A DNA stretch of 46,757 bases from positions 1 through 46,757 of the forward strand of contig JAADFO010000063.1 in assembly GCA_013152815.1 (NCBI GenBank). Direction: 5' to 3'. This DNA is from Nanobdellati archaeon. Lineage in GTDB: Archaea; Nanobdellota; Nanobdellia; Woesearchaeales; JAADFO01. A program made the translations under genes and the position numbers. Of the stretch, positions 27,999 to 46,757 are shown piece by piece. The first letter of the stretch is position 1. Each line of letters starts with the position of its first letter. The notes beneath the pieces are model-generated. The model saw only the letters and a list, made by a program, of their open reading frames with translations. It was not told where the DNA came from and ran no database searches.

Positions 27999-28721
27999 AT
28001 GCCTGATTCCATGTCCGACCGCTACGCACGTCAGGAGGCGCTCCCTGCCATCGGGAAAGCAGGCCAGAAAAAACTTGGGGAAGCAACCGTCACGATCGTC
28101 GGTCTTGGCGCCATCGGAAGCCATGCTGCAGAGCTTCTCCTTCGTGCAGGTGTGCATAACCTCATCCTCATCGATGATGATATGGTCGAGCTCTCCAATC
28201 TCCAGCGGCAGGCGCTCTATACCGAGAAGGACATCGGCCTCATGAAGGCTGATGCGATTGCCCGTCATCTGCAGGCGATCGACGGCAAGGCCAGGCTCGG
28301 CATCCATACAAAAAGGATGGACGAAGGGAACATGGATTCATTGCTGCCGTCAATGGGCAGGGACGCAGGCAGGGTCGTCCTCGACTGCACCGACAACCTC
28401 GAGACAAGATACCTCATCGACGCCCGCTGCAAGAGCAAGAACATCCCCTGGGTGCATGCCGCCTGCGTCGGCTGGTGGGGCGAGGTGAAAGTCTTCCCTT
28501 CCTTCTCATCTTCTGTCCGGCAGAAGACCTATCAGGACATCTTCCCGGACAAGAAGACGCCTCTGGGCTGTGTCGATGCCGGTGTCCTCAACCATGCTGT
28601 GGCTATGACCGCGGCCATCCAGGTCGGCGAGACGGTCAAGCTCATCCTCGGAGAGCCACCCACAGAAGAGCTGATGCGCATCAATGCATGGAAGCATACT
28701 ATCGAGAAGATACGGGTCTAG
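27999..28721 (+). CDS. ThiF/MoeB-family E1-like enzyme (UbaA-like), zinc motifs absent
   Basis: RYARQ, GLGAIG, DDDMVELSNLQRQ, DCTDN, LGCVDAGVL catalytic-loop Cys. Confidence 0.92.
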   Translation: MPDSMSDRYARQEALPAIGKAGQKKLGEATVTIVGLGAIGSHAAELLLRAGVHNLILIDDDMVELSNLQRQALYTEKDIGLMKADAIARHLQAIDGKARLGIHTKRMDEGNMDSLLPSMGRDAGRVVLDCTDNLETRYLIDARCKSKNIPWVHAACVGWWGEVKVFPSFSSSVRQKTYQDIFPDKKTPLGCVDAGVLNHAVAMTAAIQVGETVKLILGEPPTEELMRINAWKHTIEKIRV

Positions 28722-31117: not shown

Positions 31118-31541
31118 TCATCTTTAATCGCCTATGCATATTCTTCAGGAACGTCAGGGCCTTTGTCGCATACTCAACATCATATGATCTGCCATGGCGT
31201 TTTATCTGATCCTGATGGTATCGCAGATCGTCCATGAAAACAGCGTCTGCATAGGAGAACTGCAGCTCAAGGAGATAGCTCACCTCTGCTTCGTGTGATG
31301 CACCGTCTGGACTGTTGTATCCTTCCATGTGGAGGATTGCTCTGATGAGTTCTATGAGAACATCATAGGCCTGCTCAATGCAATAATTTGCATTCAATTC
31401 GCTCACGCCTGTCTTTCTCAGTATGATGTCAAGAAAGGTCTTCCTTTTTTCAGCCTCTTGCATCAGCGATCTTGCCCGTGAGAAATCAGGAGAGCTCTTC
31501 CTCATCGCTCCTTTCTTCAGATGCGCTGCAAAACGTTTCAC
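31098..31541 (-). CDS. Orphan HEPN-like protein with a degenerate motif
   Basis: PDFSRARSL, AYDVLIELIRAIL..EGY, ASHEAEVSYL, DDLRYHQDQIKRHG; GTG start inferred; no adjacent MNT gene. Confidence 0.65.
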   Translation of the reverse strand: MKRFAAHLKKGAMRKSSPDFSRARSLMQEAEKRKTFLDIILRKTGVSELNANYCIEQAYDVLIELIRAILHMEGYNSPDGASHEAEVSYLLELQFSYADAVFMDDLRYHQDQIKRHGRSYDVEYATKALTFLKNMHRRLKMIISTRI

Positions 31542-32006
31542 AGGTGTGTTCCCCCAGGCAAGACAATCCCTCAAGGCAAAATCCCTTCAAGGATGTTCTC
31601 TCTGAGGTGTTTATGGATGCTCTTCATGTTTTCGTAGAACTATGCGGAACTGTTACGCTCGTGTTGTGGTCTGTATGGTCTTATCCGAAGCCTTTTCTGT
31701 CCCTTCCTGTGGCTGTCAGGCCATATCCGGATCCATCGTATCCTCTCCGCGTGAATAGCTGCCGAACAGAGTGATGGTCGCTCCCGGAAGCGCGTGTTCC
31801 AGATAATCGATATGTCCGATACATGGGAAAGCCGCAGGATCCAGGCACCTCACGCTCTTTTCTCCCCGTCATCGCTGCAAGCGTGTCCGGCACCCGGGCA
31901 GGTCATCTTCCTATCGCTTTCTGCCCTGTCGCCCAATGACGCGGCTCATCATGATAGGTATCGGTCTCACGTCCGTCGCTTAACGACGATCATAACGTCA
32001 TAACGA

Positions 32007-32945
32007 TCATACGATCCCTTTTTCGCGAAGTTCGCGATAGAATGAAAGATTGACGATCTCCTCCTGGATATCCACCAGCAGATTGAAGACCTCTTCCAGA
32101 CCTTCTGCAAGCGCATGCTCTTTGCCTTTCCGTAACGAGACAAGCTGCCTCCCGAAGAGACCTTGGTCTGCCTTCACAAAACCAGGACCCAGACCCCTGA
32201 GCAGATGCTTTATGGTACGACGGAATTCTTCCTGCAGGAACAGGACGGTCTTCTTTGCCTTCTGGAAGGGCAGCCTGGTCTCGGCGAGGTCCTCGATCAG
32301 GTCGTGCACATTCTCCAGTTTCTTCGCGATCAGCACGTAGGACGGTGCATCATGGTTTCTTCCGATCTTCGAGCTTGCCAGCATCGAAGGCTCCAGGAGC
32401 GCAAGAGAGATGAGCTTCATCGCGAGATGGAACAGCCTATCCACCTCTCGTTCATTGGTCTTGATCTCAGACAGGTCGGTCCCTTCCAGGAGTGCGGTGA
32501 ATGAAAGGTTGATGACCAGGCTGATGCGGAAGAGCACCTGGGGAAGATCGCTCTTGGAAAGGTCGAGCAGGCTCGTTATGGTCAGGCTTCTCTCATCCTC
32601 ATAGCTGATCTCTGTCCCGCTCATATGACGCAGGGTCTCTCTTATCCGTTGCTTGATCTCAGCAGGGATCCGTTCCCGATGCTTGATATGGATTGTCCGG
32701 ATGCCAACATAATAGATGGCAAAGAGCACCTGGTCGATGGACTCCCTGTGGGTTTCGATGTCGAGCGTGATCTCTTCCGGCGTGACCTGAGGCTCTTGGC
32801 CGACAAAGAGACGCAACGACCCATCTCTCTGCTCGTCGATCAGCACTTCTTTCCCTTTCTCGAGCTTCTGGCTGAACACCCATCGTTTCGGAAGAGACAC
32901 CGAATAGGTGCTTCCTGCGATGAGCTGGATCTTTCGGCGATGCAT
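32007..32945 (-). CDS. AbrB-PhoU phosphate uptake regulator-like protein
   Basis: RKIQLIAGSTYSVSLPKRWV AbrB domain, YYVG, EREVDRLF, KKLENVHD PhoU-like helices. Confidence 0.85.
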   Translation of the reverse strand: MHRRKIQLIAGSTYSVSLPKRWVFSQKLEKGKEVLIDEQRDGSLRLFVGQEPQVTPEEITLDIETHRESIDQVLFAIYYVGIRTIHIKHRERIPAEIKQRIRETLRHMSGTEISYEDERSLTITSLLDLSKSDLPQVLFRISLVINLSFTALLEGTDLSEIKTNEREVDRLFHLAMKLISLALLEPSMLASSKIGRNHDAPSYVLIAKKLENVHDLIEDLAETRLPFQKAKKTVLFLQEEFRRTIKHLLRGLGPGFVKADQGLFGRQLVSLRKGKEHALAEGLEEVFNLLVDIQEEIVNLSFYRELREKGIV

Positions 32946-33523: not shown

Positions 33524-36028
33524 TCAGCCCATATAACTGGGCTTCTCCTCCTGCATCTGTTTCGCCTTTGCCTGTCTGAAGAAGTTCTCGAGCTGCTTGT
33601 AGTTTTCGATGATATCCTTGGATACGGATGGTTTGACTATCTCCCTGGCCTTGTCGAAATGCTTCTTTGAAATCTTCTTGGCCTTGATGTCATCCCGAAG
33701 GGCCATGATGGCCGCTTCTCTGGTCATCCCCTCGATGTCTGCTCCGACATAGCCTTCGGTGATCTCAGCGAGTTTCATCAGGTCCACGTCATTGTCCAGA
33801 GGCATCTTCTTTGTATGGATATCGAAGATCTTCTTCCGGGCAACGGCATCGGGGACCGTACACATGATGATCCTGTCGAACCGTCCTGGTCTCAAAAGGG
33901 CTGTATCCAGGATGTCTGGCCTGTTGGTGGCAGCGAGGACGACGATGTCGTTCATCTCGGTGAGGCCGTCCATCTCGGTGAGCAGCTGGTTGACGACCCT
34001 CTCTCCCACCCGATTGTCGCCTTCCATGCCTCTTCGGGCCGCGATGGAGTCTATCTCGTCGAAGAAGACGATGGCTGGTGAAGCCTGTCGTGCCTTGTCG
34101 AAGATCTTCCTGATGCCTTTCTCAGACTCGCCGACCCATTTGGAGATGAGCTCAGGCCCTTTGACCAGGATGAAGTTTGCTTCTGACTCGTTGGCGACGG
34201 CCTTGGCGAGCAGGGTCTTCCCGGTTCCCGGAGGTCCGTAGAGCAGGATGCCCTTGGGGGGTGTCACGCCCATCCGGGTGAATGCCTCAGGGTTGGAGAT
34301 GGGCCACTCGACCGCTTCCATGAGGCTCTGCTTCACGTCGGCAAGTCCGCCGATCATGTCCCAGGTCACGTTGGGCCTCTCGATGAGCACCTCCCGCAGC
34401 GCAGAGGGCCTGACGACCTTGAGCGATTCGATGAAATCCTTATGGGTGATGATGAGCTTCTCAAGCGTTTCTTTGGGGATGGGCTCGTCTTCCTTGAGCT
34501 TGAGGTCAGGGAGTATCCTCCGAAGGACGATCATCGCGGCCTCCTTGGCCAGGGCAGAGAGGTCGGCTCCCACGAAGCCGTGGGTACGATGGGCGAGTTC
34601 GTCCAGGTTGACGATTCTTTTGTTGTCGGCCAGCCTGTGCCAGTACTTATAGAGTTTCTCAGAATCGATCTGCTTGAAGAAGTCATTCTTCTCTGGATTT
34701 GACTTCAGGTATTTGGAGACAGCGTTCGTGATGCTTTTCTTTGATGCCTTGCCGTTGGCGTCCATGAATGACATGATGTTCATCATCGCTTCCTTATATG
34801 CCTCTTCGATGTCTGTGGCATCCTTGATGGCCTGGGCGAAGGAGTAGAGCGGCATATAACGGGTATGGATCTGGAGGATGGAATGCCGTCCCTTCATCGA
34901 GGGGACGCCTATCTCGACCTCCCGGTCGAACCGGCCAGGCCGGCGCAGTGCGGGATCAAGAGAGTTCGGGATGTTGGTGGCTGCGATCACCACCACTTTT
35001 CCACGGGACTTGAGCCCGTCCATGATGGCGAGCAGCTGTGCCACCACTCTCCGTTCCACCTCGCCATGGGCTTCTTCCCGTTTGGAGGCGATGGCGTCCA
35101 CTTCGTCGATGAAGATGATGGCCGGAGCGTTCTTCTCTGCCTCTTCGAACTTCTTCCGGAGGTTCTCTTCGGACTGGCCGTAGTACTTGGACATGATCTC
35201 CGGACCGTTGATGACGATGAAATGGGAATTGGTCTCGTTGGCGACGGCCTTGGCGAGCAGGGTCTTCCCTGTCCCGGGGGGTCCATGGAGCAACACCCCT
35301 TTCGGTGCGTCGATGCCCATGCGCTCGAAGAGTTCAGGATGCTTCAGCGGCAGTTCGACCATCTCCCTTATCTTGGTGATCTCCTCCTGAAGGCCCCCGA
35401 TGTCCTCATAGGTGACTTCCAGGATCTTGTGGTCGTCGATCTCCACCGCTTCCGGGTTGAATTCCACCTCGGTGAGCTCAGAGATGAGCACGGCATCGCC
35501 GGGTGTGGTGTCTGCGACGATGAACTTGATGTCGCCGAAACCCAGCCCCACCATGTCATCATCGATGATGTTGAAGATGTCGTTGAAGAACGGGCTCTGG
35601 GACATCGTGTTCCTTCTTCGCCGGGTGCCTCCCAGAGAGACGATGTCGCCCTTGACGACTGCCCTTCCCAGAAGTCCCTGCTTGAAGATGTTGGACGATG
35701 CCCGTATCATGATCCCTTTGGATGCAGGGCCGATCTTGATCCTCTTGGCCTCTTTCACTTCTGCTTTCCTGATGGTGACGTTCTCTCCGATGCCGGTCTT
35801 GGCGTTCCTCCTGATGATGCCGTCGGTGCGGATGATGCTCAGGCCGATATCACCCGGGTAGGCACGGTCCACGATGCCCACGGTCTTCCGCTGGCCTTCG
35901 ATCTCGACGATGTCCCCCGGCCGTACATCTATCTCCTTCATGAATGCAGTGTCGATGCGGACGATGCCCTTGTTCACATCATCCTGGATGGCCTCGGCGA
36001 CCTTGAGTCTTATCTCTTGTCTTCCCAT
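33524..36028 (-). CDS. cdc48: Cdc48/VAT AAA+ ATPase with a helical insertion after D1
   Basis: N-domain plus two GPPGTGKT Walker A, DEVD/DEID Walker B, RPGRFD; C-terminal PSYMG HbYX-like tail. Confidence 0.97.
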
Positions 36029-40639: not shown

Positions 40640-42736
40640 TTACCTCCGTCTTCCTGCACGGAGGACGATGAAGAGCGTCACCAGGAAGAAGGCCAGCGCG
40701 ACCAGAAGCATGGCCGGAAGATAATTTCCCATGGACCGCAGCATCCTCGATGCCCGTATCTCGACGCTGTCCATCAGATTTACCTTGTCCATCCTCACTG
40801 TTATTTCCCGGTGCGTTCCATAGTCTCGTCCCCGCTCGTCGCTGAAGCCCACCGAGAGGTTGAAGGTGTTGTTTCCTGGTTCCAGTCCCTTGGCCACCAT
40901 GTTCAGGGCGAACTGTTTATCCCCATGGAGTGCGTCCACCTGCCATGTCCGGTCATAGGAGTCGCTGCGGAGCCGTATGGTGAGATTCTTCGGGTCAGAG
41001 GAAGATCCCTTCTTCAGGAGAAAATCGATGTCATAAGGCTGCTTATACTGGACTGTCTTCGGAATCTTCACCTTTTCGATGGAGAGCGCTGGTTCGTCAT
41101 AGACCTCGACGGTCATCTGTTCGAGCATCTCCTTTCCTTCCTGCCCTAGCCGGACGAAGAGCTCTTTCCTTCCCGGAGTGTCGGGGATGTAGGTGAGATT
41201 GCTCTTCTGCTCCTGGGCGATGGGAAGGGTGAAATGGGTGCACCGGTCCAGGCAGAGGGTCATGTTCCGGAGCAGCACATTCCCCCTGTTCTTGACCGTG
41301 CAGCCGATGCGGAGCGTCTCGTTGAGATAGACAAATGATGTTTCAGGGACACAGGTGAGGACGGTCTCCTCTTCAGGGGAAGCTTTTGCTCTGGAGCGTT
41401 CCCGCTCTCTTCCCTGTTCTGCATAGGCCAGGGCATCCTTCTTGCTGATGAACGATCGGCCCTTTCTCGCCCTGAAGATCCCCTGGACGCTGTTGTTGGT
41501 GTTGGTGGCTGCACCGACCGTGAACGTGTAGATGAATTGGTCGTCCAGGGACTGGACCTGGAAAAGGTAATACGCTGTGACAGCTTCCGACGGCCTGACA
41601 AGCACATGCTGGGTCTGTGGCCCGATCAGGGTCACTCCTTTGGAGCGTTGATAGGTCAACCGCAACGGAACATAGGACGACCCGAGGTTCTTCGCCTTCA
41701 CTTCCATGACATTGTAAGAGCCGAGGTCGACCTCCTCCCTGAGGAAAGCCATGCTCAGTGCCACCTTCTTTTCTGACGGGCCATCGAAGCCTGTTACGTT
41801 CACCTGCTCGTCCAGCGGCGATGCCTGAAGGTCGATGTCCCTGCCTTTCCAATGATAGCGGGTGGAACCGGCCTTGGTGTCCTTGTCGTGTTTGAGTTCG
41901 ATGTGGGATGCATCGACGAATCCATACTCCTGATAGCTGATGTCAAAGGGCACCCATCCGAAGCCAGGGAAATAGACCTCTGCCCAGCCGTGGGGGCTGA
42001 AACCTTCGTCGAAGACCTCATAGTCGGTGTAGGCGAGGCCGGAGACATATCTCGCCGGAACTCCGAGGGAGCGCATCATGGCGATGAAGAGCGTCGAGAG
42101 CTCGTCACAGACACCTTTCCTGTTCTCCAATACCCATGATGCCTTCTGGGACGCGTCCGCCGTCAGCGTCGACAGGCTGTACTTGATGTTCTCCTCTACC
42201 CAGGTGGCCACGGTGAAGGCGACATCGTAGAGGTCGTCCTTTCCGGTGGCGAGTTCAGATGCCCTTATCATGATGTCCGGGTCGGCAGCGTCCACATTCG
42301 GCGTCGGCAGGGTATAGCTCTTTATTTCTTCCGAGAGATTTCTCACCGGGAACGCGACTTTTCTGCTTATCCTGGGAAAATGATGGTCTGTGGAGATGTC
42401 CGCGCTCACCGAGAAGGTCAGCCGATCCTGGTCCGGGTCTGAGAACTCGAAGATGAGGTGATCCTTCCCTGTCACCGATCCCGGCCGGGTGACCATATCC
42501 CTCACCTGTTGCCTCTCTGTCTGCCGCGGAAAACTGCTGAGGTTCACCCTTACACTCTGGAGAAGGCTGTCAGCTGATTTTGCTATCACCTTCAGGGTTC
42601 CGGTCATGACGATGGTCGCGTTCATGCCCGACGCGGTATAATACGGTTGTGCTGTCGTGATGGACGTGAAGAGCGTGACCAGTAAGAGAAGAAGCGACAG
42701 CAGGGCCAGCCTATGAGCAAGGGACACCTCTTTCAT
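40640..42736 (-). CDS. Exported transglutaminase-like protein with Ig-like domains and C-terminal TM
   Basis: Signal peptide; GVCDELSTLF, HGWAEVY, WVPFDIS Cys-His-Asp triad; C-terminal TM plus RRR. Confidence 0.9.
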   Translation of the reverse strand: MKEVSLAHRLALLSLLLLLVTLFTSITTAQPYYTASGMNATIVMTGTLKVIAKSADSLLQSVRVNLSSFPRQTERQQVRDMVTRPGSVTGKDHLIFEFSDPDQDRLTFSVSADISTDHHFPRISRKVAFPVRNLSEEIKSYTLPTPNVDAADPDIMIRASELATGKDDLYDVAFTVATWVEENIKYSLSTLTADASQKASWVLENRKGVCDELSTLFIAMMRSLGVPARYVSGLAYTDYEVFDEGFSPHGWAEVYFPGFGWVPFDISYQEYGFVDASHIELKHDKDTKAGSTRYHWKGRDIDLQASPLDEQVNVTGFDGPSEKKVALSMAFLREEVDLGSYNVMEVKAKNLGSSYVPLRLTYQRSKGVTLIGPQTQHVLVRPSEAVTAYYLFQVQSLDDQFIYTFTVGAATNTNNSVQGIFRARKGRSFISKKDALAYAEQGRERERSRAKASPEEETVLTCVPETSFVYLNETLRIGCTVKNRGNVLLRNMTLCLDRCTHFTLPIAQEQKSNLTYIPDTPGRKELFVRLGQEGKEMLEQMTVEVYDEPALSIEKVKIPKTVQYKQPYDIDFLLKKGSSSDPKNLTIRLRSDSYDRTWQVDALHGDKQFALNMVAKGLEPGNNTFNLSVGFSDERGRDYGTHREITVRMDKVNLMDSVEIRASRMLRSMGNYLPAMLLVALAFFLVTLFIVLRAGRRR

Positions 42737-43233: not shown

Positions 43234-43839
43234 ATGGAAAAGAGTAAACAGAGTAAACAGGCGATATATCTGATCATGACGACAGAACTGGTCAAGGAGA
43301 AGCAAGAGCAGCCATCGGACCGGCGTGACGACAGCGCCTCTGCATCGACCTCTGCCGGCGAATCAGGCCAGTCCAACGAATCCATCGTCCTCTATGAACC
43401 GATGATCAAGGCGGCGAATCTCAATGATGTGCTGAAGTGGAACATGATCGAGCTGAAGGACTACATGCTCAACAACGAACCAGACCTTGTGGGAGACATG
43501 TATCAGAAGGGACCTCAGGAGACTGCAACTGTTGTCAGGGACTTCTATCAAAAGGTCACTGAGAATCCCGGGCGTTTCCGGGCAGACCTCTATCTCTTCC
43601 CCAAGGATACAGGAGAAACAGTAAAGATCATGGTTCGGCCGTTCGATACGGTGGCTGATTTCGCAGACCGTGTCATCGGTGAACAGACGCCCGACATCGA
43701 TGGAATGGAACTCACCGACAAGGTCCTTGCAGGCATGTTCCTTCTGGTCGACGGTCTTGGCAGTCTTGGCAGTCTTAGCAATGCGCCACGAATGGATGCA
43801 CCCAACCTGTATCGGTTGCTTGCAGCCTACGGGCAGTGA
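43234..43839 (+). CDS. Putative ubiquitin-like (beta-grasp) modifier precursor
   Basis: LYLFPKDTGETVKIMVRPFDTVADFADRV resembles the ubiquitin N-terminus; Gly-rich DGLGSLG and terminal YGQ; first gene of an operon with E2-like and E1 genes. Start uncertain (43225/43234/43276). Confidence 0.5.
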   Translation: MEKSKQSKQAIYLIMTTELVKEKQEQPSDRRDDSASASTSAGESGQSNESIVLYEPMIKAANLNDVLKWNMIELKDYMLNNEPDLVGDMYQKGPQETATVVRDFYQKVTENPGRFRADLYLFPKDTGETVKIMVRPFDTVADFADRVIGEQTPDIDGMELTDKVLAGMFLLVDGLGSLGSLSNAPRMDAPNLYRLLAAYGQ

Positions 43840-43854: not shown

Positions 43855-45210
43855 ATGCTCACCCTCACCAGCCAGACACCGTTCAGCAGCACGCTAGGTC
43901 AGGGGTATGGCTATGTTCTCATGGGATCCCAGCTGTTCACGCTTGATGATAGGCGGAACGGTCTTGCACGCCATGTCTTCACCGATGGTCAGGTCTACTG
44001 GTTTCAGGGCGGTCTCAATTATGATACCCTGGAAAAACGGATCATCACCAACAATCTTCCCTCCATCCTTGCTGAAGTGAACGATCAGCTGGCCGAGGAA
44101 GCAGCCAGCGGAACCAAGGATCGGCTCAGAGCAGACACCATCCGTGCCTCTTTCAAGCATCTCACTCCGCAAACCTATGAGCAGTATATCCTCCAGCACA
44201 TTCTCGGGAGCTATGATGTTCCTCTCAGGGCATCTCCCGGCAGGTGCACATCATCTGCTGCAAATGAGTGGAGGATCACCGGTCGGGATCTGCTCAGTCG
44301 TCTTCCCATCCTCACTCCACCATACCAGGATACTGCTCTCTATTTTCATCAGGACCTCGTGGATCTGTTCTCTCTTCGGAAAACAAACGACACTTCTGTT
44401 GTTTCTTGGCAGACTGCTCGGCAGCAGGTGATGCAGGCGGTGGCTAATCTCATCAGTTCGAAACAGCGGCTTCAGCCTCAATACATCGCTCTTGGTTCTA
44501 CAAAGCTCTTCAGGAAGTCGACCCTGAGCATCGACATGTTCCTGCAGGAATATGAGCAGCGCTATCAGGGGATCCTTGATGATCTCATCCGGACAAGCAC
44601 CGCAAAGGTGGATAAGTTGAAGATGGTCGCTGCTCAGGACTATCAGCAGAGCAGTGACCAGTTGCGTGCGCTCAGTCGGGGACGTGCCCATCAGCAGGAT
44701 AAGGATCCTATCTGGTACGAACGGCTGACTGACAAGACCTTTCATCTTTTCCTGCGCATACCTCCCTTTGTGATGGTCTCAAGCGAGACCTACTATTATT
44801 TCAAAAGACCTGTCACCGTCAGGATGAAGATATCTTTCGCTGATAGCCACGGAAGTGTGGAACTTCCTCGGATCATCCATCCTCTGAAGTATGTTCATCC
44901 GTTCGTTTATTCCCCTTCAGCCGATGTCAAGGGACAAAGCATCTGCTTCAATAGTGGTTCTTCCTTGACTTCCTTGGGGGTCCGGTTGCACGATACCCCT
45001 GTCCACGGCATGGATGACCCTTCTTTTGCAAGGAATGTCCTCCTGCTTCTCAAGAAGACCGTCAACGGCCTGACGTCGGGCTATGTTGAGGGAGTGAAAC
45101 CTGTCCATAACTTGAGCGCTTTCTCTGACTTGGCTGTTCCTCCCTCTGAGATACCTTCCCACGTGCCTGTCTACTATCAGGACACCATGGACTGGGGCGG
45201 TCAGCGATGA
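43855..45210 (+). CDS. Protein with C-terminal E2/UBC-like domain and long N-terminal extension
   Basis: LFLRIPPF...LPRII...VHPFVY...GQSICF (His348-Pro, Cys364) resembles the E2 HPN..G.ICL core; GAGGTG RBS; ATGA overlap with E1. Confidence 0.6.
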   Translation: MLTLTSQTPFSSTLGQGYGYVLMGSQLFTLDDRRNGLARHVFTDGQVYWFQGGLNYDTLEKRIITNNLPSILAEVNDQLAEEAASGTKDRLRADTIRASFKHLTPQTYEQYILQHILGSYDVPLRASPGRCTSSAANEWRITGRDLLSRLPILTPPYQDTALYFHQDLVDLFSLRKTNDTSVVSWQTARQQVMQAVANLISSKQRLQPQYIALGSTKLFRKSTLSIDMFLQEYEQRYQGILDDLIRTSTAKVDKLKMVAAQDYQQSSDQLRALSRGRAHQQDKDPIWYERLTDKTFHLFLRIPPFVMVSSETYYYFKRPVTVRMKISFADSHGSVELPRIIHPLKYVHPFVYSPSADVKGQSICFNSGSSLTSLGVRLHDTPVHGMDDPSFARNVLLLLKKTVNGLTSGYVEGVKPVHNLSAFSDLAVPPSEIPSHVPVYYQDTMDWGGQR

Positions 45211-46691
45211 ATGCGGCAAGCACCCAACTCCGTTTCGACCGCAATATCCTTCTTTTTGGTGAAGAGGGACAACGACGTCTCATGGATACTCACGTCCTCC
45301 TTCACGGGACCAACACCCTCTCCCAGAAGATCGCCCTGTCCCTGATCAGCCTTGGCATCGGCAGGCTCTCGCTCATCGGACCAGAACATCTGCAGGGATA
45401 TGATCCTTCTGATTTCCTGCTGTATCTGAATCCTTCCCGCCCGGCCGAGGGAATGAAGGCAGATGGTCTGCGTTCGACCCTGGAGCAGATCGCTCTCCGC
45501 GGAAAACAGCAGGTCGATTCCTATGGCATCCCCCCTGATCCTGGTTTCCTCTCTTTTCTCTCACCAGACATCATCATCGACGCGACCAATGCTCTGGAGA
45601 GCAAGGATGCCTTGTCTGCCTATGCGATGTCCCATGGGACACATCTCATCTCTGCCAGCGCGACGTCTACCGACGGACTGGCCCAGTTATGCTCCTCAGG
45701 ACAGTCCCCTGTCGACAGAGCATCGCTTGAACGCCTGATAGGCAAGGACTACGGCATCTTCACCGGTTCCATCACCGCGGGACTCGTGAGCAATCTGGTG
45801 CGTCGGATCGCCATTCCCTTCGCAAACGAACAGAAGACCCTGCCTCCTGTCCTGACCCAGTCCTACGCGCTCTCAAGGATTGCCGGCATCACCACACCCA
45901 TCGATGCTCCTGATGCTTTACCCTGGCCCTCTTCAAGGCCCTATGCTGGTGTCAAAGCGCTCGTGATCGGCACAGGAGGCATCGGCAACTTCCTCGCGCT
46001 TGACCTTGCGCTGCTGGGAATCACTCATGTTACCTTGGTGGACCCCGATGTGATCGAGGAATCCAACCTCAACCGGCAGCCGCTGCTCTATGGCCGGGTC
46101 GGAAAGCCAAAGGCAACTGTCATCGGTGAACGCATGGGCCTGATCTATCCCGGAGTATCTGCAAGACCGTTGGTCGACTTTTTCAGCTATAAGCATGATG
46201 ATCGAGGACGGTTTCAGGTCTTGCCTGAACCGCTGGCTTCAGAACACTATGACCTCATCTTCTCCTGCGTGGACAATGAGACCAGCAGGCTTGCCATCAA
46301 CGACTACGCGGTCCAGACGAGGACTGTCCTGGTCCAGGGAAGATTGGGGACAGGCAGCGGACTGCATACCTATGTTCCCGGAAGGAACCGGTGCATCGAC
46401 TGCCAGGAGAACCTGCGCGCATCCCTGGAGAACCAGAAGGCCACGGGCCTTGATGTCGACAAGGTATTGGGCCCCGGCTGCCAGCTCGAGTCCAACCCGA
46501 ACATCGTGGTCCCGAACATCATCGTCGCAGGTCTGATGACAGAGGAAGGTCTGCGTGCGCTCTACAGACCAGCGAGTTTTGCCCGACAGAAGGATGCATT
46601 GTTCTATGAAGGGGTCGGATCGTTCCCTTTCTCCTTCCGGGGAGGCGTCGATCCCTACTATCAAGCCCATCCTTGCATCGATGTTTCCTGA
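45207..46691 (+). CDS. Tandem-domain E1 enzyme (inactive plus active ThiF adenylation domains)
   Basis: Domain 1: RFDRNILLFGEEGQRRL, degenerate loop HGTNTLS, DATN. Domain 2: GTGGIG, DPDVIEESNLNRQ, GKPKA, SCVDN, CIDC, PGCQ. Confidence 0.88.
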   Translation: MNAASTQLRFDRNILLFGEEGQRRLMDTHVLLHGTNTLSQKIALSLISLGIGRLSLIGPEHLQGYDPSDFLLYLNPSRPAEGMKADGLRSTLEQIALRGKQQVDSYGIPPDPGFLSFLSPDIIIDATNALESKDALSAYAMSHGTHLISASATSTDGLAQLCSSGQSPVDRASLERLIGKDYGIFTGSITAGLVSNLVRRIAIPFANEQKTLPPVLTQSYALSRIAGITTPIDAPDALPWPSSRPYAGVKALVIGTGGIGNFLALDLALLGITHVTLVDPDVIEESNLNRQPLLYGRVGKPKATVIGERMGLIYPGVSARPLVDFFSYKHDDRGRFQVLPEPLASEHYDLIFSCVDNETSRLAINDYAVQTRTVLVQGRLGTGSGLHTYVPGRNRCIDCQENLRASLENQKATGLDVDKVLGPGCQLESNPNIVVPNIIVAGLMTEEGLRALYRPASFARQKDALFYEGVGSFPFSFRGGVDPYYQAHPCIDVS

Positions 46692-46757
46692 CCATCAGGA
46701 ACTGCTTGTCCTGAAGCGATCATCATCGTGAAAAGCACATCCCGAAAAGAAGCAACA

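Follow-up and report, generated by a model that had tools for sequence, protein, structure and literature searches.

Complete Ubl-E1-E2-protease systems have been described in bacteria (Bil, Bub and CBASS) and in Aigarchaeota and Asgard archaea, and UBE2O and BIRC6 are E2-E3 hybrid enzymes in which a large E2 carries its own substrate-binding region. The Bil E2s are proposed to recognise their targets directly; in BilB a variable loop is proposed for this recognition, and His151 is proposed to stand in for the Asn of the HPN motif (10.1101/2023.09.26.559546). For Nanoarchaeota/Woesearchaeales or DPANN, no Ubl-E1-E2-protease system was found described in the literature covered, which did not extend to supplements and subscription journals; the Bil and Bub operon tables, which are bioRxiv supplements, could include archaeal entries. 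The locus considered here lies near the end of the window, i.e. the whole 46,757-nt stretch of Woesearchaeales DNA that was analysed. Its sequences and predicted structures point to a real, uncatalogued E2 of unusual architecture, probably active, in a Bil-like archaeal operon.

Comparison with described systems

The locus shares several traits with BilABCD Types I/II, as presented by Chambers et al.: a Ubl with a conserved Gly and a tail, a Cys-bearing E2, a JAB peptidase, the lack of an E3, and a single-chain IAD-AAD E1 with the IAD arginine and a crossover Cys. According to the same source, BilB has a Cys with a His 13 residues downstream, within CEHH in Type II, whereas the E2 family of the window is 295-605 aa long, has a duplicated stalk and a predicted split UBC fold, and carries HPF rather than CEHH; no conserved His/Glu of the BilB type follows C364 in the E2-family alignments. 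The E1 also departs from the BilABCD E1 described there in having no helical CYS domain of about 80 aa, the crossover loop being too short in 64/65 rows (7-26 residues from the CxxC position to the Cys, and about 12 after it). A variable gene order, an archaeal host and surroundings in which no defence island was recognised set the system further apart from BilABCD as described there. On the basis of these sequence comparisons, the system appears to work like BilABCD, but its E2 is not BilB.

Canonical UBC E2s (UBE2S, Rad6/UBE2A, UbcH5 and UBC9) resemble the window protein in fold, about 125 residues aligning at Z 6.6-7.6, and in the His-Pro...Ile-Cys register, with a His-Cys spacing of 10 in 24/85 members; they differ from it in that the window protein has Phe for Asn, an insertion of about 165 aa between alpha1 and beta1, and a sequence below Pfam UQ_con detection. 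The Caldiarchaeum/Asgard Ub-E1-E2-RING-Rpn11 operon likewise combines an archaeal Ubl, an E1, an E2 and a JAMM protease, but the present operon has no RING-pattern ORF, an E2 without HPN and a Ubl without a sequence match to ubiquitin (PMC5654768). The Bub (6E) operons share the Ubl/E2/E1/JAB components; according to that preprint they form Tyr/Ser oxyesters and have no catalytic cysteines, whereas here the Cys is kept in E1 (C425, 65/65) and in E2 (C364, 91/92), and fusions of the BubAB/BubCD type are absent from the window operon family (10.1101/2024.11.21.623953). The likeness to UBE2O and BIRC6 is one of logic only; neither was matched in sequence or structure by the Foldseek, VIA or PDB profile searches.

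An E2-family protein with a UBC-like core

The E2-family protein (43855..45210, + strand; 451 aa), identified from its ORF, motifs, AF2 model and homologues, sits between a 201-aa ORF (43234-43839) and a 494-aa ORF (45207-46691) on the same strand, and its stop codon overlaps the start of the latter, the downstream E1 gene. The motifs on which the first-pass annotation based its proposal of a large E2-like protein are all present in the translated ORF, namely LPRI at residue 337, HPFV at 348, QSICF at 361 and FARNVLLLLKKTVNGL at 391, preceded by a helical stretch with EYEQRYQGILDDLIR at 232 and DQLRAL at 268. The spacing of 16 between His348 (codon 44896..44898, +; HPF as the HPN equivalent) and the predicted catalytic Cys364 (codon 44944..44946, +) is likewise as first described, as is the replacement of the HPN Asn by Phe350.

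Neither the E2 nor the upstream 201-aa protein is recognised by Pfam, PADLOC or NCBIfam. The E2 has no Pfam match even at E<=1 and no profile match to Pfam Prok-E2 A-E, so that the UQ_con and Prok-E2 profile search proposed at first reading came out negative for this protein; both are also absent among the 25 Pfam families listed for 89 E2-family members, and PADLOC and NCBIfam give no BilB-type match for these members. An Atlas lead, at 0.79, to a cluster in which Prok-E2_D makes up 39% is under the bar of that tool.

Profiles built from the family consistently matched E2s, although no individual match is significant. A PDB-sequence profile search returned UBC9 only (4/4 rows, E 1.2), a second one returned E2s in 17/19 rows (E 0.3-1.6), and the alignments set HPFVxxxGxIC against HPNVYxxGxIC, in register with UBC9/UBE2A. 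AF2 with 18 sequences gave a model with a mean pLDDT of 69 and a pTM of 0.47 (pLDDT 33 from the single sequence), in which several N-terminal blocks fall below 50 and each 10-residue block across residues 281-440 lies at 74-93. The latter region holds the UBC core (residues 286-433; 44710..45153, +), delimited by AF2, the PDB profile searches and structural alignments, and comprises a beta-sheet, the HPFV loop, Cys364, a crossover helix and a PVH motif. At E<=0.001 nothing in PDB or BFVD was matched by Foldseek, although E2s make up most of its rows; some weak phage rows of 370-520 aa are leads only. Atlas yielded no structure match that could be used, whether for the E2 or for the Ubl. In a wide VIA search, the first 29 rows are entries with UBC/UEV-fold chains, the best being UbcH10 (Z 7.5, rmsd 4.0, 125 aligned); a further match, at Z 6.0, is to the BubB entry 9eav. 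A second-look structure search returned UBC/UEV folds in 50/50 of its best rows (Z 7.6-6.6, rmsd about 4 Å; best row Z 7.6, rmsd 4.0, 130 aligned). As Z values below 8 are middling, the case for a UBC fold rests on the consistency of these results, on alignments that span almost the whole E2 domain and on the agreement with the sequence register. The initial E2/UBC assignment is supported, as the fold is UBC-like and Cys364 conserved, so that neither outcome named beforehand as a refutation occurred, and we consider it very likely that the window protein is an E2.

A predicted split of the UBC fold by a duplicated stalk

In all 50 of 50 rows, the second-look alignments run from model residues 103-109, which correspond to the beginning of the E2 domain, to 426-437. 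It follows that the helix at residues 105-120 (44167..44214, +) plays the role of UBC alpha1, displaced upstream, with an insertion of about 165 residues separating it from beta1. The helix shows a conserved amphipathic pattern, and the stalkless paralogues of the family have a similar helix shortly ahead of the core, an alpha1 matrix matching 5/10 short paralogues at p<=0.01, as compared with 0-2/10 at p<0.05 for four control segments. The first-pass annotation had placed the UBC fold in the C-terminal ~170 aa, which is borne out for the core but not for alpha1.

Residues about 5-103 and 150-280 constitute a tandem duplication of a four-strand module followed by a long helix (HHalign 97%, E 1e-10; three control pairs against the core, <1%). 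The first copy consists of repeat module 1 (residues about 7-56; 43873..44022, +), a short helix and four predicted beta-strands supported by AF2, HHalign and a module profile (E 0.0013), and of stalk helix 1 (residues 57-101; 44023..44157, +), seen by AF2 and covarying in length with helix 2. The second copy consists of repeat module 2 (residues about 143-228; 44281..44538, +; alignment, AF2 and HHalign), which is degenerate, carries an insertion of about 30 aa by comparison with homologues, and was undetected by the module profile in its own genome, and of stalk helix 2 (residues 229-274; 44539..44676, +; AF2, HHalign and length covariation). The position of alpha1 between the two copies places the second copy inside the E2 fold, and together with the duplication gives the layout module 1, helix 1, alpha1, variable linker, module 2, helix 2, UBC core. 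The UBC fold is thus predicted, from alignments and models, to be split by half of the duplicated stalk, both long helices terminating at the UBC domain, one at alpha1 and the other at beta1. What was initially described as an unknown N-terminal region of ~280 aa is therefore a repeat pair enclosing the E2's own first helix rather than a single domain, and the supposed helical linker is the second of two stalk helices, part of the duplication according to HHalign and AF2.

The lengths of the two stalk helices covary (Spearman 0.60; 84/89 rows with all anchors filled), and the intervening linker, of 11-176 aa, shows no correlation with them; independent contrasts on a core-only tree gave r=0.64 for the helices, with 0.13 and 0.17 for the linker. 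A sign test (39:22) was no better than one control (44:27), Pearson r fell to 0.10 with one outlier included, and the test had too few supported independent pairs, so that pairing of the two stalk helices is suggested only.

The repeat module occurs in 50/301 order genomes, a tally that includes the unpublished G446, nearly always at E2-family ORFs and often twice per gene; two isolated module ORFs (L132 and L175) each appear to be the N-terminal half of the same gene. No credible PDB relative of the module was found. Designed Kelch propellers (SAKe) came up as candidates, but the match covers only a 14-22-residue hairpin (per-domain E about 100) and the scores are sums over six repeats, and SAKe was for this reason rejected as evidence of homology.

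Conservation and distribution of the family

An exhaustive phmmer search yielded 19 proteins including the query, from which an 18-row alignment was obtained after the repeat artefact P0019 was dropped; word-indexed searches found just 1, 3 and 2 proteins. In the 18 rows H348, V351 and C364 are invariant, and P349 and F350 nearly so. The invariance expected of H348, P349 and C364 thus holds, almost to the last row for the proline, and such conservation across homologues makes the E2 motifs more than chance. A larger set of 105 E2-family ORFs, from about 100 fetched loci, has the His in 96, the Pro in 93, the Phe in 70 and the Cys in 92. Cys364 is kept in 91/92 ORFs of at least 280 aa, the lone exception (L065) ending just past HPF; a further alignment, A3, excludes L065, L131, edge ORFs and ORFs >520 aa, for which reason the Cys appears invariant in it, and the 91/92 count is used instead. 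Besides the spacing of 10 mentioned above, the 85 rows with both residues have a His-Cys spacing of 13-14 in 41 cases and of 16 in 2. In these alignments the spacing of 16 thus appears nearly private to the window E2, and the change of Asn to Phe family-wide.

The 13 short family ORFs comprise 3 fragments and 10 others, 9 of which lack the Cys. Short stalkless paralogues (L045, L047, L049, L057, L103, L104, L110, L114 and L130) originated repeatedly, with 4 changes on the tree, and it is possible that the Cys-less ones are UEV-like regulators.

The 18-row profile matches 43/401 phylum genomes and 64/401 order genomes, the latter tally including the unpublished G526 and G446. With an 89-row profile, the E2 family is found in 61/401 sampled phylum genomes, about 15%, three of these matches being weak (E about 1e-4), including G045, which has no family ORF on inspection. 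Phages and plasmids gave no match with the family member P0017, viral contigs none with alignment A6, and PHROGs no convincing match.

The operon and its surroundings

The E2 belongs to a recurring four-gene operon of Ubl, E2, tandem-ThiF E1 and JAB, with Ubl-E2-E1-JAB and Ubl-E2-JAB-E1 as the dominant orders. Within 4 kb and on the same strand of the 92 long E2 members there is an E1 in 79 cases, a JAB in 74, a Ubl in 63 and all three in 53, contig-edge loci being included and scored as misses. In L104, a complete operon, the E2 has the Cys but no stalk.

The candidate Ubl tag (43234..43839, +; 201 aa from ATG) matches the family profile at E 5e-23, the protein being among the seeds, and has no Pfam, Ubl-family or PDB match. 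Family members carry Gly-Gly in 48/68 rows, followed by a tail of 0-22 residues; the window Ubl has Leu-Gly in this column (Gly179, 43768-43770) and then 22 residues, tying for the longest tail. The pattern of the family by eye suits a beta-grasp, which no library supports, and the Atlas model is poor; the assignment is based on Gly-Gly plus tail and on gene position. A 9-nt micro-duplication lies at the predicted cleavage site (43756-43782), encoding Leu-Gly-Ser twice and then Leu-Ser-Asn, with two candidate terminal glycines, Gly176 and Gly179. Two further members of the Ubl family were seen: an orphan in the same genome (L145, G000:C57:127-639, minus strand; E 2.8e-6), which corresponds to the N-terminal half only, lacks the C-terminal Gly-Gly and is away from the operon, and a 408-aa protein directly after an E1 (L041:4911-6137, minus strand), which combines a Ubl-family domain with a predicted transmembrane segment and a further region.

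The E1 (45207..46691, +; 494 aa) is a tandem-ThiF protein with an inactive and an active adenylation domain (Pfam ThiF in two stretches, E 8.5e-45), whose best PDB sequence matches are SAE2/UBA1/UBA3. It has Arg12, GxGxxG, NLNRQ and a predicted catalytic Cys425 (46479-46481); the GxG, D279, N287, R290, Q291, K302, D356 and C425 are kept in 65/65 rows, and the IAD arginine R12 in 51/65. The window ends 66 nt past the E1, and its last 54 nt (46704..46757, +) match exactly the first 54 nt of contig C42 in reverse complement, and no other contig overlaps the window end in this way. The overlap suggests that the window contig (C63) and reverse-complemented C42 are adjacent. On C42 there is a JAB gene (31313-32854, minus strand; 513 aa, HSHx7Sx2D at residue 241), the ATG of which would fall 85 nt past the E1 stop. 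The JAMM motif is present in 30/32 JABs; sub-threshold Prok-JAB matches were obtained for 3/4 tested homologues and not for the own-genome JAB. A regex search, which variants can escape, found no RING-pattern ORF in the loci or in the own genome.

The genome (1.49 Mb, 90.8% complete) has archaeal housekeeping genes and proteasome subunits. The operon has CDC48 and SerRS as neighbours and, on C42, tRNA-synthetase-like genes after the JAB; CDC48, about 7 kb upstream (33524-36028, minus strand), has 834 aa and exceeds the TIGR01243 model by about 100 aa. A separate single-domain ThiF/UbaA-like E1 in the window (27999-28721, +) is probably a SAMP/sulfur-carrier activator. A sigma-70 promoter scan was discarded as uninformative, the host being archaeal.

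Among the 77 loci that carry an E2 together with an E1, an uncharacterised helical fifth gene recurs near 19 operons, co-directional and mostly downstream (loci including L031, L033, L034, L038, L051, L053, L063, L069, L089, L092, L094, L099, L102, L122, L124, L127 and L137). Its products, of 250-1240 aa with a shared N-terminal region of about 220 aa, have no significant Pfam match, and their PDB matches are only to designed helical repeats; we regard them as candidates for a target or adaptor. Transglutaminase-like genes lie near 11/77 operons (among them L031, L034, L042, L076, L089, L090, L093, L099, L104 and L130); that of the window (40640-42736, minus strand) is longer, apparently secreted and membrane-anchored, and divergently oriented. 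A kinase block occurs near 8/77 operons, and one clade has a conserved downstream Ser/Thr kinase with recurring genes (L059, L067, L111, L112, L117, L118, L120 and L121). A bacterial-type ClpX-like AAA+ gene is found near 8 loci (L042, L051, L053, L058, L068, L108, L123 and L130), within 3 kb at 6/77, and in 16/61 family-positive genomes (11/56 without the five seed genomes) versus 17/340 others, a tally of 33/401 that includes the unpublished G333 and in which kin are not independent; it was not found in the own genome and is therefore not a required partner.

Proposed mechanism and alternatives

From established E1/E2/JAB chemistry and the precedent of Bil (10.1101/2023.09.26.559546), a path can be drawn for the system. 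By analogy with BilC, and consistent with the observed JAMM motif, the Ubl tail would be cut back to a C-terminal Gly by the JAB protease. Adenylation of the Ubl and its attachment to Cys425 would fall to the tandem-ThiF E1, whose relevant residues are conserved, and from there the Ubl would pass to Cys364 of the E2. The two repeat modules may pair as a pseudo-dimeric head on the two long helices, as the suggested helix pairing would allow, and this head would bind the target and bring one of its lysines to the thioester. H418, the His of the PVH motif, may take over from the HPN Asn that the protein lacks, as proposed for His151 of BilB, and lysine conjugation would proceed without an E3. That the protein is an active E2 within a conjugation cascade appears highly probable from its sequence and model. 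The fuller reading, in which it is the E2 of an archaeal Bil-like E3-free operon with the duplicated stalk as a built-in target receptor, has in our view an even chance.

The first-pass annotation had suggested that the N-terminal region could select substrates in place of an E3 or act as a sensor. The former is compatible with the lack of a RING-pattern ORF and with the stalkless E2 of L104, which, bearing the Cys, suggests that the stalk is an accessory and not part of the E1-E2 chemistry; the latter has no specific support. Against a stalk-borne receptor in an E3-free cascade stand the Leu-Gly of the window Ubl, the degeneration of repeat 2 and the chance that the fifth gene encodes a real adaptor.

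One alternative concerns purpose and is compatible with this mechanism: the operon may serve antiviral defence in the manner of Bil, with the head of the E2 recognising a structural protein of a virus. It would fit the same four-gene kit with an IAD-AAD E1 as in BilABCD, the patchy distribution (61/401 genomes), and the high divergence, shuffled gene order and duplications. The operon nevertheless sits among CDC48, SerRS and tRNA-synthetase-like genes, neither PADLOC nor NCBIfam gives a BilB-type match for its E2, and PADLOC at 1e-10 matches only 4/114 immediate flanking genes of 71 loci (three Ser/Thr kinases and one mad2 model), which is weak evidence because PADLOC is bacteria-biased. The housekeeping context slightly favours the tagging of own or partner proteins over antiviral use in a defence island, and we regard an antiviral role as a tentative but serious possibility.

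A bolder version of the receptor reading is rather doubtful: in a DPANN-specific E3-free cascade, the protein would be an E2-E3 hybrid of undescribed architecture, in which an intramolecular pseudo-dimeric beta head on a fixed-length two-helix stalk, threaded through the UBC fold, acts as a molecular ruler capturing targets and delivering them to Cys364, it would tag own or host-interface proteins and not phage, and the Cys-less stalkless paralogues would be regulators.

It can also be envisaged that the E2 is active in the same cascade but that its stalk is an arm for oligomerisation, localisation or scaffolding, with the long tail of the JAB, the product of the helical fifth gene or some structure of the cell as its binding partner, and that the variable His-Cys loop picks the targets. 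The loop, at 10-16 residues, is reminiscent of the variable BilB loop proposed for recognition, the JABs have long variable C-terminal extensions (224-1033 aa in total), and the helical fifth gene accompanies a part of the operons. That gene was, however, not found in the window's own 91%-complete genome (G000), and the stalk falls into narrow length classes while the linker ranges over 11-176 aa, which suits an arm of fixed reach. We consider a scaffolding arm unlikely, and favour the pseudo-dimeric head as target receptor over a scaffold with loop-based recognition.

A non-catalytic UBC/RWD-fold scaffold with a structural Cys, the ThiF acting in sulfur transfer or peptide modification, would accommodate the family-wide loss of the HPN Asn and a Ubl without fold or library support, but is improbable given that the Cys goes with members that are long and linked to the operon, whereas short paralogues standing alone have lost it, that a separate single-domain ThiF/UbaA-like gene is present at 27999-28721, and that none of the recurring neighbour clusters was recognised as a sulfur-pathway gene.

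A system of this kind, kept in about 15% of reduced genomes, would represent an independent archaeal branch in the origin of ubiquitin conjugation. The predicted split UBC fold and the duplicated stalk would offer a direct way to test how E2s chose their targets before there were E3 ligases, for which the stalkless and the Cys-less paralogues are available as natural controls.
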